Below are positions 8,193 to 50,873 of a stretch of DNA of 55,134 nt, piece after piece; the stretch's first letter is position 1, and every line of letters begins with the position of its first letter. Origin of the DNA: an uncultured Rhodobacteraceae bacterium. GTDB taxonomy: Bacteria > Pseudomonadota > Alphaproteobacteria > Rhodobacterales > Rhodobacteraceae. A model generated the notes under the pieces. It saw only the letters and a list, made by a program, of their open reading frames with translations. It made no database searches and had not been told where the DNA came from. Position numbers and translations under genes: made by a program. The stretch spans positions 1 through 55,134 of the forward strand of contig CBFHYV010000001.1 of assembly GCA_965660085.1 (NCBI GenBank). Reading direction: 5' to 3'.

Positions 8193-8224
8193 AAAAGGGG
8201 CCGCCCGGCAAGGGCGGCCCTTTC
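8193..8224. terminator. Bidirectional Rho-independent terminator between convergent genes
   Basis: AAAA-GGGCCGCCC-ggcaa-GGGCGGCCC-TTTC: a perfect 9-bp GC stem flanked by A and T tracts. It lies between the DUF599 stop (8159) and the giant gene stop (8252). Confidence 0.8.
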
Positions 8225-8251: not shown

Positions 8252-11200
8252 TTACGCGATCTCGATGAATCCAGCGAGCTGCGTGAGCGAGATGCCCGAC
8301 TGGCCCTGCAGGGTCAGCGTATCGCCATTGTCGAAGTCCAGCACGAAATCCGCGCCAGACACGCTGCCCAGCTGCGTGACAACCTGACCGGAGGTGAGGC
8401 CAGAGACCCCCAGCGCGGCGCCATCCAACTCGATGATGTCCAGGAACCAATCCTCCACAACATCGGCCCCATCGTTGAACACGAAGGTATCGCGGCTGGT
8501 GCCGCCGCGCAGAGTGTCATCGCCCGCGCCGCCCTCCAGCCGGTCATTGTTGCCGCCGCCGTTGAGGTAATCATTCCCCGCGCCGGCGATCAGGGTATCG
8601 TTCTCCTCACGCCCGAACAGGCGGTTGTCGCCCGTATCGCCATAGAGCAGGTCGGCAAAGGCGCCGCCGGCCAGATCCTCGATGCTGTCATAGCTGTCGC
8701 CCGCAGCCTCGCCCGTGTTCAGGCTGGTGTCGGCAAGGCTCGCCACGATCGCTGTCAGGCTTTCGGAATACTGGGCGCGGTCGCGGTTTTCGCCGCCGAT
8801 CAGCACGTCCTGACCCACACCGCCGAACAGCACGTCATCGCCCACGCCACCTTCCAGCGTGTCATTGCCGCGCCGGCCGAAGATGTAATCAACGTTCGCC
8901 ATGCCCTGGATGCGGTTGTCTTCCAGCGTGCCGCGAAGGTTTTCAAAGCCTTGGGAGCCGATCAGATGTTCGATCCCTTCAAACGTGTCGCCCTGCGCCC
9001 AGAAGGTGTTGATCTGCGGGAACAGCAGATCCACCCGCAGCGACCCGCGCGACCCTTCGTAGGACACGGTGTCGATGCCATCGCCCCCGTTGAAGGCATC
9101 CGCCCCGGCGCCGCCGTTCAGCAGGTCATCGCCCACGCCGCCATCCAGGCTGTCATCGCCATCCTCACCCAGCAGCGAGTCATTGCCCGCGCCCCCAGCC
9201 AGCGTGTCATCGCCGCCAGCAGCCGCCACGAAGTCAGCGCCGTTGCCGCCGGTGATGGAATCCGCGTTGGCGAAGCTTTCCAGGATATCGACAAGATTGT
9301 CCGCATCCGGGCCAAGCGCGATGAAGTTGTCCAGCAGCGTTTCGGCATCGCGCGGCTCGTAGAAGGCATAGGCCTCCACCAGCTCGCCATCCAGGAACAG
9401 CTGCATGGCCGTCACATCGCCCTTCACATCGCCGCCGGTCGCGGGTGTGTTCTTCTCGAAATCCCCGTAGAGCTGGACGAAATAGCCGTTCCCGCTGTTG
9501 GTATCGAAGAAGGAGACGAAGTTCTCATCCGCACGAGAGACCGGGCCGTCCAGCTTGTCGCCCTGCGTGTCCGACATATCCAGCGTGATCGCCTTGTCCT
9601 CGGCGAACTGGCCGAAGGCCCCGGTGAAGTCATCGCCGATCTCGATGGTGCGGGACGCGGTGACCACGCCATCCTGCCCCACAGAGGTGTTGGACGGAGG
9701 CAATGTCAGCGCCCCGACCGTCAGGTTCGGCAGGCTGTAGTCATCGGCTTCGCTGTAATCGACCGTATAGCCAAGATCCTGCAACGCACCGACCGACACG
9801 ATGCTGATGGGCATTGGCGGTTCGGTTTCCGCGAAGGGCGTCATCAGTTCGGTGTCAAACACCTCTTCGGACCAGTGGCCGCTGTCGCTCAGCGGAACGC
9901 TGTTGCCCAGCCCGCCCAGCGCGTTGAAGGCGTTGATGCCGGCCTGGCCGATATAGGTATCGCCCGAGATCAGACCTTCGCGGGCCCAAAGCGTGCCAAT
10001 GCCCAGCACATGGCCCATTTCATGCTCGATCACCTCACCCAGGATGCCGCGTTCGACCATGTATTCCAGGTCGGCCACGTCGAATTCCATCATCCCGGTA
10101 AAGGGCGTGCCATCGGCGCGGATGCGGGTTGGCCCGGCCTGGCCCAGGATGTTGCCCGCGCCGTCAATGTCCACGACCGATGCGGAGATCAGCAGATCAT
10201 CCACCAGCACGCTGGACCGGCCGCTCATGGACAGGTTGACATAGCTGGTATCGGGCAGGTCTTCGGTGATGATGGCCTCCCATGCCGCGGCGGCGTCCTC
10301 GAAATAGGACAGGAAGCGGTCGTCGCCGTTGAAATCCAGCGTGATGTTGAAGCCTTCCTGCGGCGCCGGGGCCTCGGGTTCCGGCTCTGGCTGGTCGGCG
10401 GCTTCGGTGATGGCCAGCTCATAGGTGCCCACGCCGCTGTTATAGGCCCGGGCGGCAATGTAATGCGTGCCATCCTGCGCCGCGACAAAGGACGCGAAGC
10501 TGTTCAGCCCCTCGCCATCGTCATCATCCGTGGTGCCGGCCTGCAAACGGCCATTGGCATCATACACGCCCATCAGGAACGGATCGCGCAGCGACCCATT
10601 GCCCGTCCTGACGCCCAGCACATCGACCTCATATCGGGTGCCCGCCTCAAGCTCGACAGCGAACCAGTCCTCGTCATCGGCCACCTCGATCGCGCCGCCG
10701 GTGATCCCGCCCACGGCGATGCTGCCGGTGGTGGTGGTGTCGGCAGCAAAATCGTCGGCGTTGTCCACGCCTTCAAGCTGGGACACGTTGAGCGTATAGC
10801 TGCCGGTGCCATAGCCAAACGCCGCGGCAGAGATGAAGACTGTTCCAGTTTCTTGCGCGAAATAGGTCGTCAGACTGTTCAGACCCTGCCCGCCGTCATC
10901 GTCAAAACTGTCAGAGATCAGCGTGCCGGTGCTGTCATAAACGCCGCGCATATAGGGATCCACCAGGGTGCCGGCGTCGGTTTCCTCGCCCTCAAGGCTG
11001 ATGGAATAGGCACGGCCCGCCACGACATCCATCGCGAACCAGTCCCTGTCGCCCCCGGTCTCGATCCGGCCAAAGGCCGAGCCATCGATCACCGCAGCGC
11101 CCGTGGTGGTGATGTCATCGGCAAAATCATCCGCCACGACAAAGCCGGTTTCCGTCACGGTGACCTTGTAGGTGCCGGTGTGGTCGGCAAAGGCGCCTGC

Positions 11201-14200
11201 GGCGATATAGTAGGTATCGCTGGCCTCTGCGGTGAACTCCAACCGGCTGTTCAGCCCCTGCCCGCCATCATCATCCAGCGTATCGGCAATCAGGGTGCCG
11301 GTGCTGTCATAGAGGCCGCGCAGGTAGGTATCGCTGAGCGTCCCGGAATTGGTGGCCATGCCTTCCAGATCAATCCGGTAATCAAACCCCGCCACCAGAT
11401 CGACAGCGAACCAATCCGTATCACCCGCGGCTTCGATCTCACCAAACGTGGTGCCATCCACGGCAACCGCGCCGGTTGTTGCCGTGTCGGCGGCAAAGTC
11501 ATCTGTCTGCACAACCTCCGTCACCGTCAGGCTATAGGTGCCGGTTGCGGCGCCAAAGGCGGTGGCCCCTATGAAATAGGTGCCCTGTTCCGACGCGGTG
11601 AAGGTCGCGCGGCTGTTCAGCCCCGCGCCGCCATCATCATCCGCAGCGCCGACAAACAGACCGTTGGTATCATAGACACCGGTCAACAGCGGGTCATGCA
11701 GGCTGCCTTGGCCCGTCGGGTCGCCTTCAAGATCCAGGATCACCGTCTGGCCTGCGGTCAGATCCAGCGCGAACCAGTCTTCGTCATATTCCGTTTCAAT
11801 CACACCCACGGTGGAGGCGCCGACAGAGATGGAGCCCTGGGTGGCAACGGTGTTGTCATAGTCATCCGCGGCCCCGGCCACGGCCTCGACCGTCAGGGTA
11901 TAAGAGCCCGTGTTGGCGCCAAATGCCCCGGCAGAGATGTAATACTGGCCGCCTTCGGTCGGGGTGAAGCTGACAAGGCTGTTGAGGTAATCGCCGCCAT
12001 CGTCATTCTGCGTGTCCGGCAAGAGGATGCCATTGGCATCGAAAATCCCGCGCAGATAAGGATCAACCAGCGTGCCGCCATCGCCGAAAGACCCAACCAG
12101 CGAGATGTCATACTGCACGCCGGCATCCAGGAACACGCCGAACCAGTCACGGTCATTTTCGGCCTCGATCACGCCGGTGACGCTCTGGTTGACGCCCATC
12201 TGCCCGGCAGAGTTCACGGTCTTGCCGTAATCATCGCTCAGCGACACATCGGTGAGGGTCATGGTATAGCTGCCAATACCCGACCCGAAGGCGCCTGCGG
12301 CGAAGTAATGCACGCCGCTTTGCTCGGCCGTGAATTCCAGCAGGCTGTTCAGCCCTTCGCCGCCGTCATCGTCAAATCCGCCGGGCAGTTCAACGCCATT
12401 GGCATCAAACACACCGCGCAGGAACGGGTCAGACAGTGTGCCGCCGCTGGTGGCAGAGCCTTCCAGGTGAATTTCATAGCTGCGGCCCGCCACAAGATCG
12501 GCGCCGAACCAGTCTGTGTCATGGGCTTCTTCAATCTCGCCCGTGGCAAAGCTACCGGCCTCGATCGTGCCTGCGGCCCCGACCGAAGATCCGAAATCAT
12601 CAATGACAGACTGTTCCTCGATCGCAACGGTATAGGTTCCGGTGTTAGACCCAAACGCCCCGGCCGAGATGAAATACAGACCCGAGCTGTCCGCCACAAA
12701 CTCCAGCTGGCTGTTCAGCCCCTGGCCGCCATCGTCATCCAGCGTGCCGGAAATCACCGCGCCGCTGGCATCGAAAATCCCGCGCAGATAGGGATCGCGC
12801 AGTGACCCGGCCCCCGTGCCCGCGCCTTCAAGGTCAATGGTATAGCTGCGGCCGCCTGTCAGGTTGACGGCGAACCAGTCCTCATCGCCCGCGGCCTCGA
12901 TCTCGCCCGTGCTGGAGCTGCCCACGGTCAGCGCCCCGCTGTTGGCGCCGGTCTGGCCGTAATCGTCCTGCACGGCATCCGGCACATCCACCGTCACATC
13001 CCGGACGGACAGCAGATAGGTGCCCGTGCTGCCGCCAAAAGCGCCGGCCTCCAGGTAATGCGTGCCAGAGAAATCGGCCGTGTATTCAAACCGGCTGTTC
13101 AGCCCCAGCCCGCCATCATCATTGGAGGAGTTGGGCAGCAGATCCCCGAAGACGTCATAGATGCCGCGGATGAACGGGTCAGACAGGGTGCCCACGTTTG
13201 TCGGCGCGCCCTGCAGGTCCAGCCGATAGGTGTTGCCGGCGTCGAATTCGATGGCGAACCAGTCGCGGTCGCCGCTCTCCTCGATGTCGCCCCGGGTGAA
13301 GCCGCCGACATTGACGGCACCGGACGACCCGGCGGACTCGCCAAAATCATCCCCGGTGCTTTCGTTGACGATGCTCAGCTCATAGCTGCCGATATTGCCG
13401 CCAAACGCACCGGCAGAGACATAGTGCAGACCGGATTGCTGGGCCGTGAACTGCAATTCACTGTCAAAACCCACGCCGCCGTCATCATCATAGGTGCCAA
13501 AGACCGGCGCGCCATCAAAGGTGAACACACCGTTCAGCAGCGGGTCGCGCAGGGTGCCGGCATCGGTATCCGCGCCGCGCAGACGCAGCGTGTAGACGTC
13601 GCCCTCTGCCAAGGTAACGGCAAACCAGTCGCTGTCGCCGAATTCCTCGATCACGCCGACGACCGCGCCATCCATCGGCAGGATGCCGGTGGTCGTCTCA
13701 TCACCCGCGAAATCGTCCTGGTTCTCTTCCTGGTCCACGGTGATCGTGTAGCTGCCCGTGCCCGAACCGAAGGCTCCGGCGGAGATGTAGACAAGCCCGG
13801 TTTCCTCTGCGGTGAATTCCAGCAGGCTGTTCAGCCCTTCGCCGCTGTCATCGTCCGAAAGACCGGCAATCGGGCTGCCGAAACCGTCAAACAGGCCCCG
13901 GATGAAAGGATCACCCAGCGTGCCGGCACCCGTCTCCGCGCCCTCAAGGGACACGGTATAGGTCGCCCCGGCATCGACGAACAAGGCAAACCAGTCACGG
14001 TCCCCGGCGTCTTCGATGGTGCCAAAGGCGCTGCTGCCGGGGCCGGTGAGGTCAAAGCTGGCCGTCTGCACGGTCTCTCCAAAATCGTCAGGCGAAACGG
14101 GATCCGGCAGGTCAGGCGTCAGATCGGTGATCGACAGCGTATAGCTGCCCGTTGCCCCGCCGAAGGCCCCGGCGGAGATATAGTGCACCCCATCCTCAAC

Positions 14201-16396
14201 AGCGGCAAAGCTGAGCTGACTGTTCAGTCCGAACCCGCCATCATCATTGGCGCTGTTGGGCTGAACCGCCCCGAAGGCGCCGAAGATCCCCCGCAGATAG
14301 GGGTCAGACAGCGTGCCCGCGCTGGTGGGCAGCCCTTCGAGGTCCAGCAGATATTCATGGCCGGCTTCCAGCGTGACGGCAAACCAGTCTTCGTCGCCGG
14401 CAAAATCAATCTCGCCACCGGCGCTGCCATCCATCGTCAGGGTGCCGGTTGTGGTGCTGTTGGCGGCATAGTCGTCCGACCCGGGCGTCGGGCCGAAATC
14501 ACCGGGATCGACAAACACGTTTGCCTGATCCACGCGCAGTTCATAATCGCCGGTATAGGTGCTGAAGGCGCCCGCGGAAATGTAGTAGAACCCGCTCTCG
14601 GTCGGGGTGAATTCCAGCTGGGCCGTCAGCCCCGCGCCGCCATCGTCATTGGCCGTGTTGGGCAACAGCGATCCGCTGGCGTCAAAAATCCCCCGGATGA
14701 AGGGATCAGACAGGGTGTCTTCGCCAAAGCTCGCCGCGCTTTGCGTGATGATATAGGTCGTCCCGGCAATCAGATAGGCTTCGAACCAGTCGCGGTCGCC
14801 GATCTCCTCGATGGAGCCGAAGGCGCCGATGCCCTCGCTGGTGTAGCCCGCCGTGAGTGTGGATTCGCCGAAATCGTCAAAGACATCCGGTGTTTCATCG
14901 ATCAGCTCCAGCGTATAGCTGCCCACCCGCGTGCTGAAGGCACCGGCCGAAATGTAATGCGTGCCAGAGCTTGTCGCGGTGAAGGACATCTCGGCGTTCA
15001 GGCCAAGCCCGCCGTCATCATCCAGCGTGCCCGGCAGGATCTGGCCGGTGCCGTCAAAGACACCGCGAATGTAAGGATCGCTCAGCGATCCGTCAGAGGT
15101 CTGCGAGCCGCGCAGCGATACCGTATAGGTGTGCCCTTCGATCAGGGCCGCGCGGAACCAGTCCTGGTCATCCGCGCGTTCGATGATGCCCGTTGTTACG
15201 CCATCCACGGGCACGGCGCCGGATGTTGCGATGGAGGCCGCGTAGTCATCCGTGGTGGGCAGCGGTTCTGGCGTCGGCTCCGGCGCCGGGGTCTGGTCCG
15301 TCAGCCGCATGGTGTAGGTGCCTGTCCCGGCGCTGAACGCCCCGGCGGAGATATAGTGCGTGCCAGATGTATCGGCGGTGAAGATCACCCGCGCGTTCAG
15401 GCCATCGCCGCTGTCATCATTGCTGGTGCCCGGCAGGATGTTGCCGAACGCGTCATGGATACCGCGCAGATAGGGGTCGCCCAGCGTGCCATCGCCATCA
15501 TGCGACCCGTCGAGTTCCAGCAGGTATTCATGCCCGGCGATCAGCGTTGCGCGGAACCAGTCCTCGTCATAGCTCTCCTCGATCTCGCCGAACGCGGTGC
15601 TGCCGACGGAAATGGTGCCGGTGGTCAGCGTATCCTGGCTGAAATCGTCCAGAACCGGGGCCGGGGTCACATCCACGATGTCCAGCGTGTACGTGCCCGT
15701 ATAGGAGGCATAGCCCCCCGCCGAGATGTAGTAATACCCGTCCTGGTCCGGCACATAGTTCAGATAGGCATCCAGACCCGGACCGCTATCATCATCGGTG
15801 CTGCCGGGCATCAGGGTGCCGTTGGCATTGTAGATGCCGCGCAGATAGGGGTCAGAGATCGTTCCACCGAACGTTTCCGTGCCACGCAGCGAAATATCGT
15901 AGATGCGCCCGCCTTCCAGAAACACGCCAAACCAGTCCTGGTCGCCGCTCTCCTCGATCTCGCCAGAGGCAAAACTGCCGACACTGGCAAACCCGGCGCT
16001 GAAGATGTTGTCGCCGAAATCGTCGGTGTCGGGGGTCAGGTCCGTCACGCTCAGGACATAGCTGCCCGTCCGGGTGCTGAAGGCGCCTGCGGAAATATAA
16101 TATGTGCTGGTCTGATCGGCGGTGAAATACAACAGGCTGTCCAGCCCGGAGCCGCCATCGTCATCCGTTGTGCCTGGCAGCTGTGCGCCGCTGCTGTCAT
16201 GGATGCCACGGATGTAAGGATCGCTCAGGCTCAAGCCCAGAAGCTCGACCTGGTATTGGTGCCCGGCCTCGAAGCTGATCTGAAACCAGTCCCGATCCCC
16301 CGATGTTTCGATCGTGCCGTTGGCGGTTGCCGTGTCGCCAAAAAACGGGGCCGCGCCGGTTGTGCCGAAAATGCTGCTACCAAAATCATCAGGCAT
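8252..16396 (-). CDS. Giant (2,714 aa) secreted multidomain protein: 16 PPC-like repeats, a leishmanolysin-like zinc metalloprotease domain and RTX calcium-binding repeats (probable T1SS substrate)
   Basis: Uninterrupted ORF with GGAG 7 nt upstream of ATG 16396. No N-terminal signal peptide. Domain evidence is given in the sub-features below. Confidence 0.9.
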   Translation of the reverse strand: MPDDFGSSIFGTTGAAPFFGDTATANGTIETSGDRDWFQISFEAGHQYQVELLGLSLSDPYIRGIHDSSGAQLPGTTDDDGGSGLDSLLYFTADQTSTYYISAGAFSTRTGSYVLSVTDLTPDTDDFGDNIFSAGFASVGSFASGEIEESGDQDWFGVFLEGGRIYDISLRGTETFGGTISDPYLRGIYNANGTLMPGSTDDDSGPGLDAYLNYVPDQDGYYYISAGGYASYTGTYTLDIVDVTPAPVLDDFSQDTLTTGTISVGSTAFGEIEESYDEDWFRATLIAGHEYLLELDGSHDGDGTLGDPYLRGIHDAFGNILPGTSNDDSGDGLNARVIFTADTSGTHYISAGAFSAGTGTYTMRLTDQTPAPEPTPEPLPTTDDYAASIATSGAVPVDGVTTGIIERADDQDWFRAALIEGHTYTVSLRGSQTSDGSLSDPYIRGVFDGTGQILPGTLDDDGGLGLNAEMSFTATSSGTHYISAGAFSTRVGSYTLELIDETPDVFDDFGESTLTAGYTSEGIGAFGSIEEIGDRDWFEAYLIAGTTYIITQSAASFGEDTLSDPFIRGIFDASGSLLPNTANDDGGAGLTAQLEFTPTESGFYYISAGAFSTYTGDYELRVDQANVFVDPGDFGPTPGSDDYAANSTTTGTLTMDGSAGGEIDFAGDEDWFAVTLEAGHEYLLDLEGLPTSAGTLSDPYLRGIFGAFGAVQPNSANDDGGFGLNSQLSFAAVEDGVHYISAGAFGGATGSYTLSITDLTPDLPDPVSPDDFGETVQTASFDLTGPGSSAFGTIEDAGDRDWFALFVDAGATYTVSLEGAETGAGTLGDPFIRGLFDGFGSPIAGLSDDDSGEGLNSLLEFTAEETGLVYISAGAFGSGTGSYTITVDQEENQDDFAGDETTTGILPMDGAVVGVIEEFGDSDWFAVTLAEGDVYTLRLRGADTDAGTLRDPLLNGVFTFDGAPVFGTYDDDGGVGFDSELQFTAQQSGLHYVSAGAFGGNIGSYELSIVNESTGDDFGESAGSSGAVNVGGFTRGDIEESGDRDWFAIEFDAGNTYRLDLQGAPTNVGTLSDPFIRGIYDVFGDLLPNSSNDDGGLGLNSRFEYTADFSGTHYLEAGAFGGSTGTYLLSVRDVTVDVPDAVQDDYGQTGANSGALTVGSSSTGEIEAAGDEDWFAVNLTGGRSYTIDLEGAGTGAGSLRDPYLRGIFDASGAVISGTLDDDGGQGLNSQLEFVADSSGLYFISAGAFGSNTGTYTVAIEEQSVIDDFGSSVGAAGTIEAGSFATGEIEEAHDTDWFGADLVAGRSYEIHLEGSATSGGTLSDPFLRGVFDANGVELPGGFDDDGGEGLNSLLEFTAEQSGVHYFAAGAFGSGIGSYTMTLTDVSLSDDYGKTVNSAGQMGVNQSVTGVIEAENDRDWFGVFLDAGVQYDISLVGSFGDGGTLVDPYLRGIFDANGILLPDTQNDDGGDYLNSLVSFTPTEGGQYYISAGAFGANTGSYTLTVEAVAGAADDYDNTVATQGSISVGASTVGVIETEYDEDWFALDLTAGQTVILDLEGDPTGQGSLHDPLLTGVYDTNGLFVGAADDDGGAGLNSRATFTASEQGTYFIGATAFGAATGTYSLTVTEVVQTDDFAADTATTGAVAVDGTTFGEIEAAGDTDWFAVDLVAGFDYRIDLEGMATNSGTLSDTYLRGLYDSTGTLIADTLDDDGGQGLNSRLEFTAEASDTYYIAAGAFADHTGTYKVTVTETGFVVADDFADDITTTGAAVIDGSAFGRIETGGDRDWFAMDVVAGRAYSISLEGEETDAGTLVDPYMRGVYDSTGTLISDSFDDDGGQGLNSLTTYFAQETGTVFISAAAFGYGTGSYTLNVSQLEGVDNADDFAADTTTTGSIAVGGITGGAIEVADDEDWFAVELEAGTRYEVDVLGVRTGNGSLRDPFLMGVYDANGRLQAGTTDDDDGEGLNSFASFVAAQDGTHYIAARAYNSGVGTYELAITEAADQPEPEPEAPAPQEGFNITLDFNGDDRFLSYFEDAAAAWEAIITEDLPDTSYVNLSMSGRSSVLVDDLLISASVVDIDGAGNILGQAGPTRIRADGTPFTGMMEFDVADLEYMVERGILGEVIEHEMGHVLGIGTLWAREGLISGDTYIGQAGINAFNALGGLGNSVPLSDSGHWSEEVFDTELMTPFAETEPPMPISIVSVGALQDLGYTVDYSEADDYSLPNLTVGALTLPPSNTSVGQDGVVTASRTIEIGDDFTGAFGQFAEDKAITLDMSDTQGDKLDGPVSRADENFVSFFDTNSGNGYFVQLYGDFEKNTPATGGDVKGDVTAMQLFLDGELVEAYAFYEPRDAETLLDNFIALGPDADNLVDILESFANADSITGGNGADFVAAAGGDDTLAGGAGNDSLLGEDGDDSLDGGVGDDLLNGGAGADAFNGGDGIDTVSYEGSRGSLRVDLLFPQINTFWAQGDTFEGIEHLIGSQGFENLRGTLEDNRIQGMANVDYIFGRRGNDTLEGGVGDDVLFGGVGQDVLIGGENRDRAQYSESLTAIVASLADTSLNTGEAAGDSYDSIEDLAGGAFADLLYGDTGDNRLFGREENDTLIAGAGNDYLNGGGNNDRLEGGAGDDTLRGGTSRDTFVFNDGADVVEDWFLDIIELDGAALGVSGLTSGQVVTQLGSVSGADFVLDFDNGDTLTLQGQSGISLTQLAGFIEIA
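8474..9254 (-). repeat. RTX nonapeptide (GGxGxDxL) calcium-binding repeat region, three blocks
   Basis: Block 1: GGNGADFVAAAGGDDTLAGGAGNDSLLGEDGDDSLDGGVGDDLLNGGAGADAFNGGDGID. Block 2: GRRGNDTLEGGVGDDVLFGGVGQDVLIGG. Block 3: GDTGDNRLFGREENDTLIAGAGNDYLNGGGNNDRLEGGAGDDTLRGG. These are followed by about 70 aa of acidic, non-repeat C-terminus (8252-8473), typical of a T1SS secretion signal. Confidence 0.85.
9750..10360 (-). other. Zinc metalloprotease domain, leishmanolysin (M8)-like
   Basis: HEMGH is encoded at 10010-10024. About 45 aa downstream lies SDSGHWSEEVFDTELMTPF, which resembles the M8 SHWE...ELM third-ligand/Met-turn region. Confidence 0.55.
10390..16396 (-). repeat. Array of 16 tandem ~125-aa (about 375-nt) PPC-like (pre-peptidase C-terminal type) modules
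   Basis: The D-W-F core occurs 16 times, from GDRDWFQISFEAGHQY at about 16283-16291 to DDEDWFAVELEAGTRY at about 10661-10669, with a mean spacing of about 375 nt. Each unit repeats GEIE..GD.DWF.V.L.AG..Y...L.G......GTLSDP(Y/F)(L/I)RG(I/V)(F/Y)D..G......DDDGG.GLNS.L.F.A...G.(Y/H)(Y/F)ISAGAF....G.Y.L.V. Confidence 0.8.
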
Positions 16397-16443
16397 CGGA
16401 ATGCTCCAGAAAATGAGGGATCATTTCTGAGCCTAGGCCGCAC

Positions 16444-16673: not shown

Positions 16674-17276
16674 TCAGATCAGGCAGCGGTCCCGCGCGAT
16701 CATCGCGGCATGGGTGCGGTTGCGTGCGCCCAGCTTGCGGCTGAGCGTCTTGACATGCAGCTTCACCGTGACCTCCTGCAGGTCGTAATCGCGGGCGATT
16801 TCCTTGTTGGACTTGCCTTCGCAAATGCCTTTCAGCACGTCCAGCTCGCGCTTGGACAGCGGGCCCGTGACGTCCTCTTCGGTTTTCTGCATGAAATCGA
16901 AGGGCGCGTAGATCTCGCCCGCAGCCATGAACCGCGCCGCCGTCAACAAGGATTTTGCACCCAGCGTCTTGGGGATGAACCCCTGCGCCCCGGCCTTGAG
17001 CGCCGCGTCGGCAACCTCGCGTGTGGCAGAGCCGGACAGGATGGCGACGGGACGGTGATTGTTGGCCACCATCATCTGTTCCAGCCCGTCAAGGCCGTTC
17101 ATGCCCGGCATGTGGTAATCCAGAAGAACCAGATCGAAAGAGCCTGTATCCTCCGCCACTTTCACGGCCTCATCCAGCGAAGACACTGTCACGACCTCCG
17201 TGATGTCTTCACCCTTCAGAAAGGCCGCGATCGTGTCGCGGACCAGATCATGGTCGTCTGCCACCAGAATCCGCAT
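16674..17276 (-). CDS. Two-component response regulator, FixJ/NarL (LuxR-type HTH) family
   Basis: MRILVADDHDLVRD..., a phospho-acceptor context LLDYHMPGMNG, and a C-terminal LuxR HTH (LSKRELDVLKGICEGKSNKEIARDYDLQEVTVKLHVKTLSRKLG). Start trimmed from 17453 to ATG 17276. Confidence 0.9.
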   Translation of the reverse strand: MRILVADDHDLVRDTIAAFLKGEDITEVVTVSSLDEAVKVAEDTGSFDLVLLDYHMPGMNGLDGLEQMMVANNHRPVAILSGSATREVADAALKAGAQGFIPKTLGAKSLLTAARFMAAGEIYAPFDFMQKTEEDVTGPLSKRELDVLKGICEGKSNKEIARDYDLQEVTVKLHVKTLSRKLGARNRTHAAMIARDRCLI

Positions 17277-17547
17277 TTCGTCGCCCGTTGTTGCCCACCA
17301 CTTGACGCCGCACCGCAAAACCTTGCCGCACCGTGCCAGAGGCATACTACTTTGGCTTTGAAAGAAGTTGCAACAGGCACTTGCACATAGCCGGACCGGA
17401 CCCAGCGGCACTGCACCTGCCCCGGGCGGACTATACCAAAGAAGTAGCGACATACCTCAAAGGATGGTCCAATAACCACTCGCGCCATGTCAGAGCTGTG
17501 ATACTACTCAAGACAAACGAGTGTTGGTTAAGCGGAGTGTGACGGAC

Positions 17548-33482: not shown

Positions 33483-34382
33483 CTAGCCCTCACCCGACAG
33501 TCGGGAACAGATATCGTCCAACTGCGCCAGATCGCGGTAGCGCAAGGTGATCTCACCGCTTTCCGCGCCCGGGGCATGCTTGATGGCAACGGACAGGCCC
33601 AGAGCGGCGGATAGGTCAGCCTCCAACGCGCGGGTATCTGCGTCTTTCTCCGATGTCTTGCGCGGTGCGGGCCTGGGCCGGTCTGGGGCGGGCTCCGCAG
33701 CGCGGCGGGCGAGCGCTTCTGTCTCTCGAACACTCAAACCGCGCTCGACAACCTGTTGCGCCAACCGCACAGGATCTTGTGCCGTCACAAGCGCCCGGGC
33801 ATGTCCCGCGGTCAGGTCGCCCTGCCCTACCATTTTCTGCACGTCCTCAGGCAGGTTCAGAAGACGCAACAGGTTGGCAATGTGGCTGCGGCTTTTGCCG
33901 AGGGCTTCCGCCATTTTTTCCTGCGTATGGCCAAAGCGGTCCATCAGTTGGCGATAACCCAATGCCTCTTCTATCGCCGTCAGGTCTGCGCGCTGGATGT
34001 TTTCAATGATGGCGACTTCCAGAACCTCAGTATCGGAATAGTCCCGAACGAGGACGGGCAGTTCATGCACCTGCGCCATCTGCGCTGCGCGCCACCGGCG
34101 TTCCCCGGCAACAATCTCATACAGCCCATCGCTGTCCGGCTTTGGGCGAACGATCAATGGCTGAATGACGCCCTTGGTGCGGATGGACTCCGCAAGCTCT
34201 GACAGCTGATCCGGGGTGAACTGGCGGCGCGGCTGATCCGGGTTGGGCTGAATCTTGTCCACCGGGACGACCATATCGGCACGCCGGGCGGGTGAGTTGC
34301 TCTGAGGTGCCAGATCCACATCGGCCATCAGCGCCGACAAACCGCGCCCCAGACCCCTGCGCTGCTCTTTCTTTTCTGCCAT
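33483..34382 (-). CDS. parB: Chromosome partitioning protein ParB
   Basis: Contains GLGRGLSALM, the ParB box GERRWRAA and an HTH region. Lies downstream of parA. Confidence 0.93.
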   Translation of the reverse strand: MAEKKEQRRGLGRGLSALMADVDLAPQSNSPARRADMVVPVDKIQPNPDQPRRQFTPDQLSELAESIRTKGVIQPLIVRPKPDSDGLYEIVAGERRWRAAQMAQVHELPVLVRDYSDTEVLEVAIIENIQRADLTAIEEALGYRQLMDRFGHTQEKMAEALGKSRSHIANLLRLLNLPEDVQKMVGQGDLTAGHARALVTAQDPVRLAQQVVERGLSVRETEALARRAAEPAPDRPRPAPRKTSEKDADTRALEADLSAALGLSVAIKHAPGAESGEITLRYRDLAQLDDICSRLSGEG

Positions 34383-34394
34383 GTTCTACCTCTT

Positions 34395-35204
34395 TCAAGC
34401 CGCTTTGCGCGTGTTCTTCTTCAGGATTTCCAACGCCAGATCCCGATAGGCCTGCGAGCCCTTGGAGCGGGGATCGTAAGACAATACGGGCTGAGCGAAA
34501 GACGGAGCTTCGCTGACGCGGACATTTCGGGGGATGACCGTTTCAAACACCAGGTCTTTCAGCGTGGCCCGGGCATCTGTTTCAACCTGAAGGGACAAGT
34601 TGTTGCGGGCATCATACATGGTCAACACAACACCTTCGATTCTCAGGTCAGGATTTGCAGCTTCGCGCACCTCCCTGATCGAGAGCATCAGCTGAGACAG
34701 ACCTTCAAGGGCAAAGAACTCGCTTTGCAAGGGCACAAGCACGGAATGTGCCGCGACCAGCGCATTCACGGTCAACAGGTTCAGCGAAGGCGGGCAATCG
34801 ATCAGGATGAAATCATACCCGAATCTGTCCATCTCCACCTGGCGCAGGGCATCATGCATCATGAAGCTGCGCTTTTCATGGCTCATAAGCTCCAGGTCAG
34901 CGGAACTGAGATCAACGGTCGCGGGGATCAGATCAAGGTTTTCAATGTCGGTCTGTCGGATGACCTCATGGAGATCGGCATTTTCAACAAGCAGATCATA
35001 GGACGTCATCTCTCGTGCCTGGGGTTCGACCCCCAACCCGGTGGAGGCATTGCCCTGAGGATCAATATCCGTCACCAGAACTCGAAACCCCTGCTCCACA
35101 AAGGCCGCGGCAAGATTGATTGCTGTGGTCGTCTTGCCCACACCGCCTTTTTGGTTGGCAATCGCAATGATTTTCGGGGAATTGAGGAGTGCGCTATCAG
35201 ACAC
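34395..35204 (-). CDS. parA: Chromosome partitioning ATPase ParA (Soj)
   Basis: Deviant Walker A KIIAIANQKGGVGKTTT. Start trimmed to GTG 35204, which has GGAAGGA upstream and an 8-nt overlap with the rsmG stop. Confidence 0.92.
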   Translation of the reverse strand: MSDSALLNSPKIIAIANQKGGVGKTTTAINLAAAFVEQGFRVLVTDIDPQGNASTGLGVEPQAREMTSYDLLVENADLHEVIRQTDIENLDLIPATVDLSSADLELMSHEKRSFMMHDALRQVEMDRFGYDFILIDCPPSLNLLTVNALVAAHSVLVPLQSEFFALEGLSQLMLSIREVREAANPDLRIEGVVLTMYDARNNLSLQVETDARATLKDLVFETVIPRNVRVSEAPSFAQPVLSYDPRSKGSQAYRDLALEILKKNTRKAA

Positions 35205-35799
35205 GGCTGATCCTTCCAATCTCAAGGATACGGGCCTCGGCCTGTGTTTCGCTGGGGTGCGCGACAAGGTCGAAGCTCCATGACTTATAGGCAGATTCGA
35301 CCTCTTCCTGCCAGCGGGCACCCTTGGGAAACAGGCAGGTTGTCTCCTCTGCGCCATGCTTTTCGGCAAAAGCGAGGAGACGGTCTAGCGGCGCTAGGGC
35401 GCGGGCGGTCAGGGTTGATGCTTTCATGGGCGTCACAGCCTCTATCCGGGCAGTGACGACGGTAGCCTTTACGGACATCTGACGCAGCGCTGTGCGCAGG
35501 AACACGCATTTTCGCGCATCGGATTCGACGAAAGTGATGGCCGTGTCTGGCTGATGCTCTGCCAGCACAGCGGCGCAGACAAGTCCAGGGAAGCCTCCAC
35601 CGCTGCCGAGGTCAACATAATGCGCGCCCCAGTCTTGTTTCACGTGAAACAATTGTGCGCTGTCCATGATGTGCCGTTCCCAAATGCCGGGGATTGAAGC
35701 AGGGGCCACCAGGTTGATCTTGGGATTCCACTGCTCCACCAGCCATTGAAGCAACCGGAAACGGTCTTGTGCAGTCGGCGAAAAGGTGAACCTTGTCAT
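35197..35799 (-). CDS. rsmG: 16S rRNA (guanine527-N7)-methyltransferase RsmG (GidB)
   Basis: SAM motif DLGSGGGFPGL within the mnmG-rsmG-parA-parB order. Confidence 0.9.
   Translation of the reverse strand: MTRFTFSPTAQDRFRLLQWLVEQWNPKINLVAPASIPGIWERHIMDSAQLFHVKQDWGAHYVDLGSGGGFPGLVCAAVLAEHQPDTAITFVESDARKCVFLRTALRQMSVKATVVTARIEAVTPMKASTLTARALAPLDRLLAFAEKHGAEETTCLFPKGARWQEEVESAYKSWSFDLVAHPSETQAEARILEIGRISRV
35636..35651. other. parS centromere-like site (ParB binding)
   Basis: TGTTTCACGTGAAACA is a perfect 16-bp palindrome matching the parS consensus tGTTNCACGTGAAACa. It is embedded in the rsmG coding sequence (codons LFHVKQ). Confidence 0.85.
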
Positions 35800-35803
35800 T
35801 CCC

Positions 35804-37678
35804 TTACGCCGATTGCCGAGCCAACCGCCGCAGACGCGACATCAACAAAACAAGTGCGGCCGGGGTCATCCCCTCAACCTTGCTTGCCTGTGCGACATTT
35901 GCCGGCCTGGCTGCCGTCAGTTTGGCGGATAACTCGTTAGACAGCCCTTCAACAGAGGTGAAATCAAACCCCTCCGGGAAAGCAGCCGCCTCATCCCGCC
36001 GCAAACCCTCCACATCCCTCTGCTGTCGGACGATATAGTTGGCATACATCGCATCAATCCGGATCTGGCGCTTAATATCTGCTGGCAGCGCCAGATACGT
36101 TGGAGCGTATGTCCGCAACAGATCATCCGAGGGCTCTGCAAAGGCCATGACCTCATACAAGGCGCGCTTGTGGCCATCCTGCTTGATCTGAATATCATGC
36201 GCGGCCAGTTCCTTGGGTGACAGCACAGCTGCCTCCGCCGCAGCCTGACCCTGCGCCAACAGCTCAGACTTTCTGGCGAACATTTCCGCCCGTCGCTGAC
36301 CCACGCAGCCAATGGCAATCCCCTTGCCCGTCAACCGTTGATCTGCGTTATCCGCCCGCAGGGAGAGGCGAAATTCCGCGCGGGAGGTAAACATGCGGTA
36401 GGGTTCTGACACACCACGTGTGGTCAGATCATCAACCATCACGCCGATATAGCTTTCTGACCGGCTGAACGTGATGGCGCCCTGCCCCAAAGCCGAAGCA
36501 GCGGCATTCAACCCAGCCACGATGCCTTGGGCCGCAGCCTCTTCATACCCGGTGGTGCCGTTGATCTGGCCAGAAAGATACAGGCCTGGAACACCTTTGA
36601 CGGCCAATGTCAGGTCCAGGCTGCGTGGATCCACATAGTCATATTCAATCGCATAGCCGGGCTGAACGATGCTTACATCTTCCAGACCAACCATGGATCT
36701 GACGTAAGACTCCTGAACATCCTGGGGCAGCGATGTGGAGATGCCGTTGGGATAAACGGTCGGGTCATCCAGACCTTCTGGCTCCAAGAACACCTGATGA
36801 GAGGTCTTGTCGGCAAACCGAACGATCTTGTCCTCGATCGACGGGCAATACCGCGGGCCGACTCCATCGATCCGCCCGCCATACATGGCAGACCGGTTGA
36901 GGTTATCGCGGATGATTTCATGGGTTTTTTCGTTGGTATGGGTGATCCCACAGGCGATCTGACGCACGAAGGGTTTGGTGTTTTCAAAGGAAAACATCAT
37001 CGGCTCATCGTCACCCGGTTGGCTTTCCAGGGCATCCCATCTGATCGTGCGGCCATCCAGACGCGGCGGTGTGCCGGTTTTCAACCGGCCCGTGCGCAAG
37101 GCAAAGCCATCCATTTGTTCGGCGAGCCGAATGGAGGGAGCGTCCCCCATGCGTCCCCCCGGGAACTGCTGATCCCCGATATGAATGATACCCCTCAGGA
37201 AGGTGCCCGTGGTCAAGACAACACTGGCAGCGCGGATTTCCGTTCCGTCCGCCAAGGTCACGCCCACAACACGATCCCCGGACATCACAAAGGCCGCAAC
37301 TTCACCTTCGATGATGTTCAGATGTTCCGTCCCAGCGAGTTCAGCCTGCATCGTTTCGCGATAGATCTTGCGGTCTGCCTGGGCACGGGGGCCCTGCACC
37401 GCTGGCCCTTTGCGCCTATTCAATAGCCTAAACTGAATCCCCGCGCGGTCTGCAACACGGCCCATGACTCCGTCCAGCGCATCGATCTCGCGGACAAGGT
37501 GACCTTTTCCCAAACCACCAATAGCCGGGTTACAGGACATCACGCCGATTTTGGCCCGCTCCAACGTGATCAAGGCTGTTCGTGCGCCCATACGCGCCGA
37601 GGCAGCCGCAGCATCACAACCGGCATGCCCACCACCAATCACGATGACGGCGAAATCCAGATGTTTCACGTGAAACAC
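35804..37678 (-). CDS. mnmG: tRNA uridine-5-carboxymethylaminomethyl modification enzyme MnmG (GidA)
   Basis: The N-terminus has a [13 protein letters not shown] motif, and the 624-aa length is typical. GTG start at 37678. Confidence 0.93.
37662..37677. other. parS centromere-like site (ParB binding)
   Basis: A second perfect TGTTTCACGTGAAACA, overlapping the first five codons of mnmG (M-F-H-V-K). Confidence 0.85.
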
Positions 37679-37681
37679 TCC

Positions 37682-38965
37682 CTATTTCCCGAGGCAGAAC
37701 CGAGAGAATATCTCATCCAGCAAGGTTTCTACATCGATCCGGCCCACAAGCGATTCCAGCGCACGCACGACAAACCGCAATTCTTCGCTCACTAGTTCAT
37801 ATACATCGCTGCCTTGGGTCAACAACACCAAGGCCTGCGCCAGCCCATCTTCTGCACCAGCCAGTGAGGCATCCTGCCGGATATGTGCCACCAGCCCCGC
37901 TTGTTGACTGCGCTGTTCCAGCACATCCACAACGCGCGCAATCAGCTCATCAATCCCCTGCCCCGTCAGGCCGGACACACCCAACCCTTCGCAGCCGTAT
38001 AGATCACACTTGCCATAAGCCACGATATCGTTTGGCTTTGGCGGCAGTGCCGGCGCGCCACCGGGCTCCAGCAGAAATATACGCAAGTCCGCAGCATCCG
38101 CGCGCGCCCTCGCCCGATCAATGCCCATTTGTTCCAACTGGTCCTCAGTCTCCCGAAGACCGGCAGTGTCCAGAAGCGTAACAGGCAGCCCGCCTAGATC
38201 CATCCGTAATTCGATCACATCGCGTGTCGTGCCAGCAATCTCGGACGTCAGCGCAGCGTCACGCCCGGCCAAGACGTTCAGCAGAGTCGATTTTCCCGCA
38301 TTTGGCGGCCCGACAATCGCAACCTCAAACCCCGTGCGGATGCGTTCGGCGGCTGAAAAGCCCCGGCGTTGTTCAGAAATGCTGTTCAATACCTCTGTGA
38401 TCAGAGAGCGCACTTCCGGTGTCACATCCTCGGGGACATCTTCATCCGCAAAATCAATCGTCGCTTCGATCAGCGCAGCAGCCCGGATCAGCTTGTCCCG
38501 CCATTGGTCCGCCGCCTTCCCCAAGGCCCCATCCAGGCTGCGCAAGGCCTGCAGGCGCTGCGCTTCCGTCTCCGCCTCAATCAGGTCACCCAGGGCTTCA
38601 ACCTGTGTCAGGTCAAGGCGTCCGTTTTCCAGGGCACGGCGCGTGAATTCGCCAGGTTCCGCCATGCGAACCGCGGGCAGAGAGGACAAGCAGGACAGAA
38701 CAGCACGGGTCACCGCAATGCTGCCATGGACATGAAACTCCACAACATCTTCGCCGGTAAAGCTCGCCCCACGCTCAAAGCACAGCACCAGCGCCTCATC
38801 CAGGAAACCGACATCACTGAACCGCAACTGCCGCAGCGCCGCATGGCGCGGGCGCGGTAATTTGCAGAACTGCGCCGCCGTGGCCCAGGCGTCAGGCCCG
38901 GAGATACGGATCACCGCAACACCGGCGCGCCCCTGGGCGGTTGCCAGGGCAAAGATCGTATCCAA
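37682..38965 (-). CDS. mnmE: tRNA modification GTPase MnmE (TrmE)
   Basis: MDTIFALATAQGRAGVAVIRISG, G1 motif GPPNAGKST, DTAG, and a C-terminal CLGK. Confidence 0.93.
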   Translation of the reverse strand: MDTIFALATAQGRAGVAVIRISGPDAWATAAQFCKLPRPRHAALRQLRFSDVGFLDEALVLCFERGASFTGEDVVEFHVHGSIAVTRAVLSCLSSLPAVRMAEPGEFTRRALENGRLDLTQVEALGDLIEAETEAQRLQALRSLDGALGKAADQWRDKLIRAAALIEATIDFADEDVPEDVTPEVRSLITEVLNSISEQRRGFSAAERIRTGFEVAIVGPPNAGKSTLLNVLAGRDAALTSEIAGTTRDVIELRMDLGGLPVTLLDTAGLRETEDQLEQMGIDRARARADAADLRIFLLEPGGAPALPPKPNDIVAYGKCDLYGCEGLGVSGLTGQGIDELIARVVDVLEQRSQQAGLVAHIRQDASLAGAEDGLAQALVLLTQGSDVYELVSEELRFVVRALESLVGRIDVETLLDEIFSRFCLGK

Positions 38966-38992
38966 AGGTAAAGCTCCCCTTGCCCGGCCGGT

Positions 38993-40264
38993 TTAGCTGT
39001 TCATCGAGTCGAAGAATTCCGAATTTGTCTTTGTCTGCTTCAACTTCGAGATCAGGAATTCGATCCCGTCTGTCGTTCCCATCGGGTTGAGAATGCGGCG
39101 CAGAACATAGGTTTTCTGCAGATCGATCTTGTCCACCAGCAGATCCTCTTTCCGGGTCCCGGATTTCAGGATGTCGATTGCCGGGAACACCCGCTTGTCC
39201 GAGATCTTGCGGTCCAACACGATCTCGCTGTTGCCGGTGCCTTTGAATTCTTCAAAGATGACCTCGTCCATCCGGCTGCCGGTGTCGATCAGCGCCGTGG
39301 CGATGATCGTCAGGCTACCACCCTCTTCGATGTTTCGGGCGGCGCCGAAAAACCGCTTGGGGCGCTGCAACGCATTCGCATCCACACCACCTGTCAGCAC
39401 CTTGCCCGAGGACGGCACCACGGTGTTGAAGGCTCGTCCAAGTCTTGTGATCGAATCAAGCAAAATCACCACATCTCGTTTATGCTCGACAAGTCGCTTT
39501 GCTTTCTCGATCACCATTTCCGAAACGGCCACATGGCGCGTTGCGGGTTCGTCAAAGGTTGAGGAGATCACCTCGCCCTTCACGCTGCGCTGCATGTCGG
39601 TGACTTCTTCAGGGCGCTCATCGATCAGCAGGACGATCAGATAGCACTCAGGGTGGTTCTTTTCGATGCTGTTCGCGATGTTCTGCAGCAGAACCGTCTT
39701 GCCCGTGCGCGGCGGCGCCACGATCAGGCTGCGCTGGCCTTTGCCGATGGGTGCCACCAGGTCAATGATACGGGCCGAACGGTCCCTGATGGTGGGATCT
39801 TCGATCTCCATCTTCAGGCGCTCATCGGGGTAAAGCGGCGTCAGGTTGTCAAAGGCAATCTTGTGACGCGCCTGATCGGGTTGCTCGAAATTGATCAGGG
39901 TGACATCCATCAGCGCAAAATAGCGTTCGTTTTCCTCCGGGGCCTTGATGGAGCCTTCGATCGTATCCCCCGTCCGCAGAGAGAATTTGCGGATCATATC
40001 GGGAGAGACATAAATATCGTCCGGACCGGGCAGATAATTTGCCTCGGGCGAGCGGAGGAAGCCGAAACCGTCCTGCAGCACCTCCAGCACGCCATCGCCG
40101 AAGATATCCCAGCCCTCATCCGCGCGTTCCCGCAGGATCTGGAACATCATCTCGCCCTTGCGCATGGTCGAGGCGTTCTCGATCTCCAGCTCTTCCGCCA
40201 TCGCCAGCAATGCGGCGGGGGTCTGTGCTTTCAGATCGGACAGGTTCAGGCGGGGTTCGCTCAT
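38993..40264 (-). CDS. rho: Transcription termination factor Rho
   Basis: An N-terminal Rho_N domain, an RNA-binding domain (GFGFLR) and Walker A APPRTGKT. 423 aa. Confidence 0.95.
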
Positions 40265-49363: not shown

Positions 49364-49788
49364 GGCCCCGCCCCTGAGCCGGAACAACCGGCCCGGGACA
49401 AGATCATCAAATCCAGAAACAGGGCGTCTTGCGCCCTGTTTTTTTTGGCTTTCTCTTGTTGGCGCGCCCTGGTGCGCAGGGCGTGAATGGCCAAATCCTC
49501 GCCCACCGCGCGGGCCAGCCCCTGTTTCCGTGTCTCTTGCGTGGCGCGCAGCTGGGCAATCTCCATCAATGTCTCTTGTCTGCGGCGGGTCAGCGTTGCC
49601 AGCCAGGCGCCTGTCTGGCCCAGCACGGCGCGGGCGGGGTCGGTTTCCTGGCTGGCGTGGCTGATCTGCAACTGAATGGCGCGCAGCTTTTCGTCGGCCC
49701 GGATCAGCTCTGCCGTCAGCTGCGCCATGGCCTGGCTTTCGGCCCGGCGGCGCATGGCAGTGATCTTGGAGAGTTGCGGCAGCGTCAT
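49333..49788 (-). CDS. Coiled-coil hypothetical protein of the flagellar export cluster (FliJ-like role is speculative)
   Basis: Its ATG overlaps the flhB stop (ATGA), which argues for real translation. About 115 aa are heptad-like and Q/R/A-rich. The last ~35 codons run through the cycA terminator and into the cycA 3-prime end. Confidence 0.5.
   Translation of the reverse strand: MTLPQLSKITAMRRRAESQAMAQLTAELIRADEKLRAIQLQISHASQETDPARAVLGQTGAWLATLTRRRQETLMEIAQLRATQETRKQGLARAVGEDLAIHALRTRARQQEKAKKNRAQDALFLDLMILSRAGCSGSGAGPYIAGPTETR
49417..49446 (+). terminator. Rho-independent terminator of cycA
   Basis: AAACAGGGCG-tcttg-CGCCCTGTTTTTTTT: a 7-10 bp stem followed by a T8 run, 54 nt after the cycA stop. 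Confidence 0.85.
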
Positions 49789-50873
49789 CCCATGCCTTTC
49801 TTGCGTTTCTGGCGCAGCGCGTCTGCAAACCGGATCGCGGCGGCGACGGCTGCATAGTGGTCAGGGGGGATCTGCTGCCCCACCTCAACAGTGGCAAACA
49901 GTGCCCGTGCCGTGGGGGGATCGGAATGGATCGGCACCCGGGCGTCCTGCGCTGTTTCGCGGATGCGGCGCGCGATCTCATCCGTGCCCTTGGCCACGCA
50001 GACCGGGGCGGTATCCGCACCGCGATCCCACGCCAGCGCCACCGCGTAATGCGTGGGGTTGACGATGACCACATCCGCCTTGGGCACATCCTGCATCATG
50101 CGATTTGCGGCGATTTCCTGTGCCCGGGCGCGGCGCTGGGATTTTACATGGGGATCGCCTTCGGCGTCCTTGACCTCATCGCGCAGTTCCTTGTGGGACA
50201 TGCGGTTGCGCTTCATGAATTGCGCCCGCTGCCAGATGTAATCCAGCGCCGCGATGCCGGCGGCCACAAGCACGATCAGCCCCAGCAGACGCAGCGACAA
50301 GGCCCCCAGCATGGACATGCCCTGTTCCGGCGGCATCAGCACCGCGGCGGTGACAACGTCCATATTGCGCCGCAGGAAAATGAACAGGCAGGCCCCGAAA
50401 AGGCAGAGCTTCGCCGCGCTCTTGGCGAATTCGGACAATCCCTGAATGCCGAATTTCTGTTGCGCCGTCTGTATGGGCGAGATCCGCGACAGCTTTGGCT
50501 TGATCTTTGATGGCGCAAAAACAAAGGCATTCTGCGCGGCAACCGCCAGCAGAACGGCCACCATCGGGATGGCAAAGCCGGCCAGCAGGCTATGGCCGAT
50601 CTGCCGCAACAGGGCGCCAGTTGCGGGGCCCGCCTGGGATTGCAACAGTTGGGCGGCAATGTCGGGCGCCTGTGACAGCATGGCCGTCAGGCTGCCGCCG
50701 ATGTCGGACACCCATGCCACGCCGAAAGCCGACAGGCCCCCCCACCAGCCGACATAGGCCGCGGTGCTGCTGATATCGGCCGAGCGTGCGATCTCGCCCT
50801 TTTTGCGGGCGTCTTGCAGTTTCTTTTCGGTCGGGTCGTGGTTTTTCTCTGTATCGTCGTCAGCGCCTGACAT
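49785..50873 (-). CDS. flhB: Flagellar type III export protein FlhB
   Basis: Contains EKNHDPTEKKLQDARKKGEIARS, four TM helices and the NPTH autocleavage site (VIVNPTHYAVAL). Confidence 0.92.
   Translation of the reverse strand: MSGADDDTEKNHDPTEKKLQDARKKGEIARSADISSTAAYVGWWGGLSAFGVAWVSDIGGSLTAMLSQAPDIAAQLLQSQAGPATGALLRQIGHSLLAGFAIPMVAVLLAVAAQNAFVFAPSKIKPKLSRISPIQTAQQKFGIQGLSEFAKSAAKLCLFGACLFIFLRRNMDVVTAAVLMPPEQGMSMLGALSLRLLGLIVLVAAGIAALDYIWQRAQFMKRNRMSHKELRDEVKDAEGDPHVKSQRRARAQEIAANRMMQDVPKADVVIVNPTHYAVALAWDRGADTAPVCVAKGTDEIARRIRETAQDARVPIHSDPPTARALFATVEVGQQIPPDHYAAVAAAIRFADALRQKRKKGMG

Follow-up and report, generated by a model that had tools for sequence, protein, structure and literature searches.

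What kind of enzyme is encoded by an 8.1-kb reading frame that joins a zinc-binding motif to a long array of repeated modules and to RTX repeats, and how might so large a product leave the cell and find its substrate? This question is raised by a 55,134-nucleotide stretch of contig CBFHYV010000001.1 from an uncultured Rhodobacteraceae bacterium (assembly GCA_965660085.1), referred to here as the window, meaning the whole stretch of DNA that was analysed. The giant gene it carries encodes, in order, 16 pre-peptidase C-terminal (PPC) modules, a leishmanolysin-type (M8-like) domain, a mid domain, three RTX blocks and a non-repeat tail (Table 1). We consider it reasonably probable that the product is an exoprotein exported by a type I secretion system (T1SS), in which an active M8-like protease is combined with a PPC array that serves for binding.

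The open reading frame (ORF) is a single intact one of 2714 codons beginning with ATG, in agreement with an earlier interpretation made from the letters of this DNA (the sequence-only reading), which had described an uninterrupted 8.1-kb ORF lacking a signal peptide. The ATG is supported as the start because the N-terminal form M-P/S-D-D-F/Y recurs in many homologues. The N-terminal MPDDFGSS leads directly into PPC module 1, and no hydrophobic stretch was found in the first 60 residues (Kyte-Doolittle maximum 0.9 in a 15-residue window), indicating no Sec or Tat signal peptide as judged by hydropathy. The predicted protein has a mass of 282 kDa and an isoelectric point (pI) of 4.05, and contains no cysteine, six lysines and 461 acidic versus 78 basic residues, or one lysine or arginine per 35 amino acids (aa). 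This near-absence of basic residues agrees with a trait reported for the secreted RTX-like proteins of Roseobacter strains, which are similarly poor in them (PMC3933643). With so few lysines and arginines, tryptic proteomics would miss the protein.

Assignment and integrity of the catalytic domain

The assignment of the catalytic domain to M8 rests on the agreement of three independent methods, namely Pfam, profile comparison and structure search. Scanned alone, the domain scores 25.6 bits against Pfam Peptidase_M8 (PF01457; cut-off 21); the model is absent from the scan of the whole protein and passes only in this form, and homologues carry precomputed PF01457 matches. A profile built from 21 family members matches leishmanolysin (1LML) at E 5.6e-13, versus 0.05 or worse for matrixins, and places HEMGH on HEMAH, the histidine of GHW on that of GSAGSH, and TELMT on DELMAP. 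An AlphaFold2 model of residues 2013–2386 (mean predicted local distance difference test, pLDDT, 80; predicted TM-score 0.79) has 1LML as its sole Foldseek match in the PDB at E <=0.001 (E 4.4e-8, probability 1.00, 280 aligned columns). No NCBIfam model covers the catalytic piece. The sequence-only reading had likewise proposed an M8-like protease and not a serralysin, the position it gave for HEMGH is exact, and the GHW and ELM that it noted behind this motif are present.

The catalytic residues His2125, Glu2126, His2129, His2174 and Met2185 are all intact in the window protein, and the HExxHxxG form is present as HEMGHVLG (residues 2125–2132). Across the 21 family members both histidines of HExxH are invariant and the glutamate is conserved in at least 90%, and the zinc ligands and the methionine are invariant or almost so.

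A zinc metalloprotease followed by RTX repeats could also be a serralysin-type (M10B) enzyme with extra domains. Serralysins (AprA, PrtC, serralysin, ZapA) have no signal peptide, leave the cell by type I secretion and share with the window protein both this combination of parts and a homologous C-terminal RTX region; weak matches to the NCBIfam serralysin and ZapA models and 13.9 bits for Peptidase_M10 (PF00413) on the HExxH region point the same way. These NCBIfam matches, however, like those to hemolysin models, fall in the whole-protein scan on the RTX region only and far under their cut-offs, and the M10 score lies below its cut-off of 24 whereas the M8 score exceeds its own. The Pfam scan gave no match to PF08548, the serralysin C-terminal family, and HEMGHVLGIGT has no third histidine at the place prescribed by HExxHxxGxxH. 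PrtC reached E 0.56 in the Foldseek search that gave 4.4e-8 for 1LML. The result is M8 and not M10, and we regard the M10B reading as refuted, with practically no likelihood left to it. The layout differs as well: the serralysin protease is N-terminal, whereas the one in the window lies behind 2000 aa of PPC modules and is followed by an extra mid domain, in a protein about six times the size of a serralysin. Neither an adjacent inhibitor gene nor an adjacent T1SS operon was seen.

M8 is best known for the Leishmania virulence factor GP63 (leishmanolysin). HExxHxxG, a distant third histidine in a G-x-H context and the Met-turn (D/T)ELM all align between the two, whereas leishmanolysin has about 470 aa and the window domain 213, with no glycosylphosphatidylinositol anchor, signal peptide or disulfides, embedded in a bacterial RTX protein. 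The full three-domain GP63 architecture, the Cys-switch propeptide and the disulfides are not found in these 213 cysteine-free residues, and the TM-score normalised to the target (1LML) is 0.37. On the combined sequence and model comparisons, the domain is best classed as M8-like or leishmanolysin-related, not as a GP63 orthologue.

Two relatives from JGI/ENA metagenomes, P0197 and P0239, have HGIGH where the window protein has HEMGH, and GKEW where it has GHW, in an otherwise preserved layout and are, to judge from these substitutions, probably catalytically dead family members. They lend some weight to an alternative in which the M8-like domain of the window protein is inactive too and the whole is a structural or binding pseudo-enzyme, as do the truncation of the domain relative to leishmanolysin and the lack of an assayed bacterial member in the literature searched. 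We give this alternative little credence for the window protein, in which the five residues listed above are intact and align with the leishmanolysin active-site motifs.

The array of PPC modules

The motif D.DWF occurs in exactly 16 copies, spaced 118–134 aa apart and with none beyond residue 1912, and cuts at the conserved DD(F/Y) define 16 modules of 121–134 aa, the number of tandem modules of about 125 aa counted earlier from the sequence. Their description as PPC-like also stands, as Pfam PPC (PF04151) matches the whole protein at E 9.9e-53 in 11 stretches. When modules are scanned singly, half of them (8 of 16) pass E <=0.001; the other eight are 36–56% identical to the passing ones and have 18 invariant columns in common with them. 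These columns, invariant in all 16 modules, include the starting DD, D.DWF and the DD of the DDDGG loop, and the acidic positions conserved across modules (DD, E, D.D and DDD) fit metal sites as far as can be read from their pattern.

An AlphaFold2 model of modules 15 and 16 (pLDDT 86.8) finds its best Foldseek match in the PDB in the calcium-bound tandem collagen-binding domain (s3a-s3b) of the clostridial collagenase ColG (5IKU, E 1.2e-9), with both domains aligned, followed by other calcium-binding jelly-roll domains. The likeness to the ColG collagen-binding domain thus comprises membership in PF04151, the acidic D.D(W/Y)(F/Y) motif and the superposition of the di-module on 5IKU; the region of this motif contributes calcium ligands in ColG. 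ColG has one or two copies C-terminal to its protease, whereas the window protein has 16 on the N-terminal side. No NCBIfam model covers the PPC pieces, and the matches to FTR_C and fhcD that appeared inside modules in the Pfam and NCBIfam scans were below cut-off and were rejected as spurious.

Identity between modules ranges from 36 to 56% in protein and from 49 to 63% in DNA. The modules are no closer to their siblings than to modules of proteins from other species, from which we see no sign of recent homogenisation and reject concerted evolution. One exact repeat, of 34 nucleotides (nt) between modules 7 and 11, had been taken in the sequence-only reading as a suggestion of ongoing intragenic recombination or gene conversion. 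The identity itself is confirmed: the repeat is maximal at 34 nt, in frame, and encodes GEGLNSLLEFT in both modules. Given the peptide and the codon usage of the gene, full codon identity has a probability of ~8e-4, and when synonymous codons of the array were shuffled 300 times, an exact repeat of at least 34 nt arose only twice. As the sole signal of its kind it is a weak hint of a short gene-conversion tract, and not of ongoing recombination.

The same figures bear on whether the 16-module array or the ORF as a whole could be an artefact of assembly, by mis-assembly, chimera formation or chance read-through of a pseudogene. The encoded protein sequence is highly repetitive, and the region lies on a 55-kb contig that is probably part of a draft assembly or metagenome-assembled genome (MAG), yet with modules 49–63% identical in DNA the longest exact repeat, at 34 nt, is too short for reads to have been collapsed or mis-joined. 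The G+C content at third codon positions (0.77) is similar to that of neighbouring genes, both ends of the protein agree with those of its homologues, and homologues with 3–14 PPC motifs are known from many independent assemblies. We therefore hold an artefact to be very improbable.

The mid domain, RTX region and probable route of export

Between the protease and the RTX blocks lies a beta-rich domain specific to the family, which has no match in Pfam or NCBIfam. Its core is modelled with a pLDDT of ~85–92 and it is conserved across the family alignments, and among 1.84 billion representative proteins a profile search recovered it in only 57. Of 31 members checked, most have it 120–150 aa past the HExxH motif, and its characteristic motif is absent from the 120 best short M8 homologues. 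It might serve this clade of M8-like proteases as a module for regulation or targeting. A LolA-like identity was considered and rejected, the Foldseek E values of 0.2–0.5 not being significant.

The RTX region comprises 15 nonapeptide-like units in three blocks, at residues 2383–2445 (seven units), 2507–2533 (three) and 2586–2630 (five), and matches Pfam HemolysinCabind (PF00353) at E 4.8e-33. Among solved structures it matches RTX beta-rolls of T1SS substrates, with the RTX region of CyaA (7usl, E 3.5e-37), PrtC (1.9e-9) and also RTX lipases. It is followed by a non-repeat tail, for whose final 60 aa a pI of 4.05 was calculated, so that the three GGxGxDxL blocks and the acidic C-terminus had both been recognised correctly from the sequence. 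The 84-aa tail, which matched no curated model, resembles the C-terminus of the Cognatishimia homologue P0152 by eye only. C-terminal type I secretion signals are poorly conserved in general.

None of the 40 other ORFs scanned in the window encodes an ABC exporter, a membrane-fusion protein or a TolC-like protein, as had already been noted from the sequence, and since the window is without T1SS genes we infer export by a machine encoded elsewhere. T1SS genes were also not found within 10 kb at three homologue loci (L001, L002 and L003), so that unlinked secretion genes may be usual for the family.

Proposed mode of action

Based on this architecture, we posit that the giant protein of this Roseobacter-group bacterium would be made without a signal peptide, be kept unfolded in the low-calcium cytosol and probably be exported, C-terminus first, through a T1SS encoded elsewhere. 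Outside the cell it would fold progressively upon the binding of calcium by its RTX blocks, and probably also by the acidic loops of each PPC module, the RTX blocks and the tail together providing the export signal and a calcium-driven folding nucleus. The 213-aa M8-like domain would then be an active zinc endopeptidase with HEMGH, His2174 and the Met-turn at its centre, and the 16 PPC modules, as calcium-binding beta-sandwiches of the clostridial collagen-binding-domain type, would act together as a long array for multivalent binding or as a spacer. Such an array would keep the protease attached to substrates that are insoluble or polymeric, for example particles, gels, or algal and other host surfaces.

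The principal rival to this proposal is a protein retained at the cell surface in the manner of an adhesin, with the PPC array as a calcium-stiffened extender that projects the M8-like and mid domains, as a C-proximal head, away from the cell (cf. LapA, MpIBP and FrhA), and not an enzyme released freely. In adhesins of the LapA/MpIBP type, an N-terminal retention module plugs the outer-membrane channel, often under LapG/LapD control. The window protein shares with RTX adhesins its large size, acidic character, tandem beta-sandwich repeats and C-terminal RTX/T1SS module, in the same layout of repeats, cargo, and RTX region with a presumed C-terminal signal, and other PPC arrays that start with M-P/S-D-D-F/Y carry adhesion-type domains (cadherin, Calx-beta). 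Calcium is reported to stiffen the tandem beta-sandwich repeats of RTX adhesins (PMC7493085). The repeats of those adhesins are, however, of the bacterial immunoglobulin-like (BIg-like) type, whereas the window protein has PPC repeats and, as cargo, a protease with intact catalytic residues. Moreover, it begins with PPC module 1 at residue 3, nothing precedes this module, and no retention or plug module was found with Pfam or NCBIfam; nor are there LapG/LapD-type genes among the 40 other window ORFs scanned. Mainly because there is no N-terminal retention module, the adhesin-like arrangement is disfavoured and seems to us rather unlikely.

Several observations weigh against the proposal of an exported, substrate-tethered protease. 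The structural alignment to leishmanolysin has only 15% identity, over a domain of about half its size, and the literature searched holds no experimental protease activity for any bacterial member of the M8-like clade. With the catalytic glutamate and third histidine lost in P0197 and P0239, proteolysis is not essential to every family member. The window offers no T1SS genes in support of export, and the C-terminal tail matches no curated model in NCBIfam. The proposal assigns no role to the mid domain, and in seawater the PPC modules are unlikely to have collagen as their target.

Distribution of the family

This order of domains recurs in at least 27 proteins in the databases, in which an array with 3–14 D.D[WY] motifs is followed by HEMGHVLG, the mid domain and RTX repeats, with no PPC module after the protease. 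They range from 1528 to 3678 aa, and most start with M-P/S-D-D-F/Y and lack a signal peptide. Examples include proteins from Ruegeria aquimaris (P0142), Ruegeria marisflavi WL0004 (P0171), Cognatishimia sp. F0-27 (P0152), Rhodovulum iodosum (P0153), Rhodovulum sp. P5 (P0191) and a Roseovarius MAG, along with many metagenome proteins, automatically annotated as 'pre-peptidase C-terminal domain-containing protein' or 'Ca2+-binding RTX toxin-like protein'. Over the catalytic and mid domains the window protein is 31–49% identical to the family; the best identities are ~53% locally in the catalytic domain and 49% over the alignment of both, and there is no close orthologue. No identical locus was found among 185,579 species representatives, the best being 43–45% over the full catalytic and mid domains and 52% over the catalytic part alone. 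None of the other M8-bearing members listed has as many as its 16 PPC modules.

The catalytic domain alone has 1481 homologues, some named 'leishmanolysin-related zinc metalloendopeptidase', in which it is variously partnered by PPC together with a type IX secretion system sorting domain, by Calx-beta, by Big_2 or by RTX. Short proteins of about 600 aa also exist in which an M8-like domain near the N-terminus is followed by RTX repeats, with no D.D[WY] PPC motif. In the literature searched we found no paper that ties leishmanolysin or M8 to bacterial RTX proteins or to Rhodobacterales, and a 2010 review of RTX proteins makes no mention of leishmanolysin or pre-peptidase domains. The suggestion from the sequence alone that this architecture had not been described is therefore consistent with the literature searched; it is not unique, as the 27 or more database proteins attest. 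It represents a small gene family, catalogued but uncharacterised, of which the window protein has the largest module count listed.

The homologue loci of Ruegeria aquimaris (L003), Rhodovulum iodosum (L001) and Cognatishimia (L002) often have other HemolysinCabind genes as neighbours, with six in a row at L003, and from their gene content look like islands of RTX exoproteins without secretion genes within 10 kb. Proteins of 2000–3500 aa consisting almost wholly of PPC modules were also observed (P0122, P0126 and P0127 were scanned, with 15–18 stretches), and other PPC arrays are combined with cadherin or Calx-beta domains in precomputed Pfam matches. Many PPC-array proteins start with M-P/S-D-D-Y/F and have no signal peptide, and many are without a Pfam RTX match.

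More tentatively, and with less than even confidence, we suggest that the family may be an undescribed class of T1SS-secreted, calcium-folded, tethered proteases of leishmanolysin type in marine Alphaproteobacteria, with 3–16 modules that anchor the enzyme multivalently to particulate polymers or to those of host or algal surfaces and a mid domain that regulates or targets it, and with a scaffold starting with M-P/S-D-D-F/Y that is reused for other payloads (cadherin, Calx-beta or PPC modules only) as a modular platform for exoproteins in general. To our knowledge RTX exoproteases have so far meant serralysins, and these would be joined in the same export scheme by a second and unrelated family of zinc proteases, M8. 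The parts are all of known domain types, relatives are already present in public databases and no new principle is involved; the combination of M8 and RTX with a 16-module array resembling collagen-binding domains is noteworthy to a specialist rather than paradigm-changing. RTX-like proteins are reported to be abundantly secreted by some Roseobacter strains and to be largely uncharacterised (PMC3933643), and a defined member with a predicted enzymatic activity and binding array could help to explain how these bacteria attach to protein of particles or algae and degrade it. Such a member would also offer a tractable bacterial model for leishmanolysin-type enzymes.

Putative transcription unit and genomic surroundings

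Table 1. Coordinates of the giant gene, its signals and the parts of the encoded protein in the window
Feature	Position	Strand	Remarks
Giant gene	8252..16396	minus	2714-aa ORF plus TAA stop, ATG start
Ribosome-binding site GGAG	16404..16407	minus	7 nt 5' of the ATG
Array of 16 PPC (pre-peptidase C-terminal / collagen-binding-domain-like) modules	10394..16390	minus	aa 3-2001, 121-134 aa each
34-nt stretch, module 7 (GEGLNSLLEFT)	13812..13845	minus	identical to 12330-12363
34-nt stretch, module 11 (GEGLNSLLEFT)	12330..12363	minus	identical to 13812-13845
Pro/Glu-rich linker QPEPEPEAPAPQE, PPC array to catalytic domain	10355..10393	minus	read from the translation
Leishmanolysin-type (M8-like) zinc metalloprotease domain	9722..10360	minus	aa 2013-2225, 213 aa
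HEMGH	10010-10024	minus	aa 2125-2129
Third ligand His2174 (GHW)	9875-9877	minus	45 aa beyond His2129
Met-turn Met2185 (TELMT)	9842-9844	minus	from profile alignment to 1LML
Family-specific beta-rich mid domain	9287..9634	minus	aa ~2255-2370, 115 aa, motif KLDG...G.F.K..P...KG
RTX region, GGxGxDxUx nonapeptides	8507..9250	minus	aa 2383-2630, three blocks with non-repeat spacers
Non-repeat C-terminus, 84 aa	8255..8506	minus	presumed uncleaved type I secretion signal region
Terminator-like GC hairpin (9 bp) and T-run	8198..8220	minus	32 nt past the TAA stop

The giant gene has its own ribosome-binding site and its own terminator-like hairpin, and its 5' neighbour, a gene for a LuxR-type response regulator (16674-17453), is followed by a separate terminator-like hairpin (16645-16625); for these reasons the giant gene looks like a single-gene transcription unit, as far as such signals can be recognised in the DNA. 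An Rfam scan of the whole window returned nothing. Upstream, between 16674 and 25239, the LuxR-type regulator gene is accompanied by an ORF resembling Oxidored_molyb, a hybrid histidine kinase that has PAS and Hpt domains, and a molybdoenzyme of the dimethyl sulphoxide reductase type with three subunits. This arrangement of regulator, kinase and molybdoenzyme is not conserved at the three homologue loci, and no conserved neighbourhood was found there. On the downstream side, the giant gene has as neighbours a convergent DUF599 gene and glcDEF-like oxidase genes.

The window as a whole is chromosomal and origin-proximal, with parB, parA, gidB, gidA, mnmE and rho on the minus strand at 33483-40264, and with maf, aroE, flhA, flhB and fliR. 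The G+C content drops to 0.58 over ~34–42 kb, compared with 0.63–0.68 elsewhere in the window. At the left, the minus strand carries a gene for a Ferric_reduct-type membrane protein (516-1124) and one for an Oxidored_molyb protein (1121-2167), which have 4 nt in common and look like an MsrQ/MsrP-type pair. Flagellar type III export genes of the FlhB, Bac_export_1/FliR and FHIPEP/FlhA families occupy 49785-53706 at the right end. The Rho protein of the window, which clusters at 90% with Roseobacter, Sulfitobacter and Sedimentitalea, places the source in the Roseobacter group, as a species that lacks a close sequenced relative, and ParB, GrpE and FlhA are singletons at 90%.

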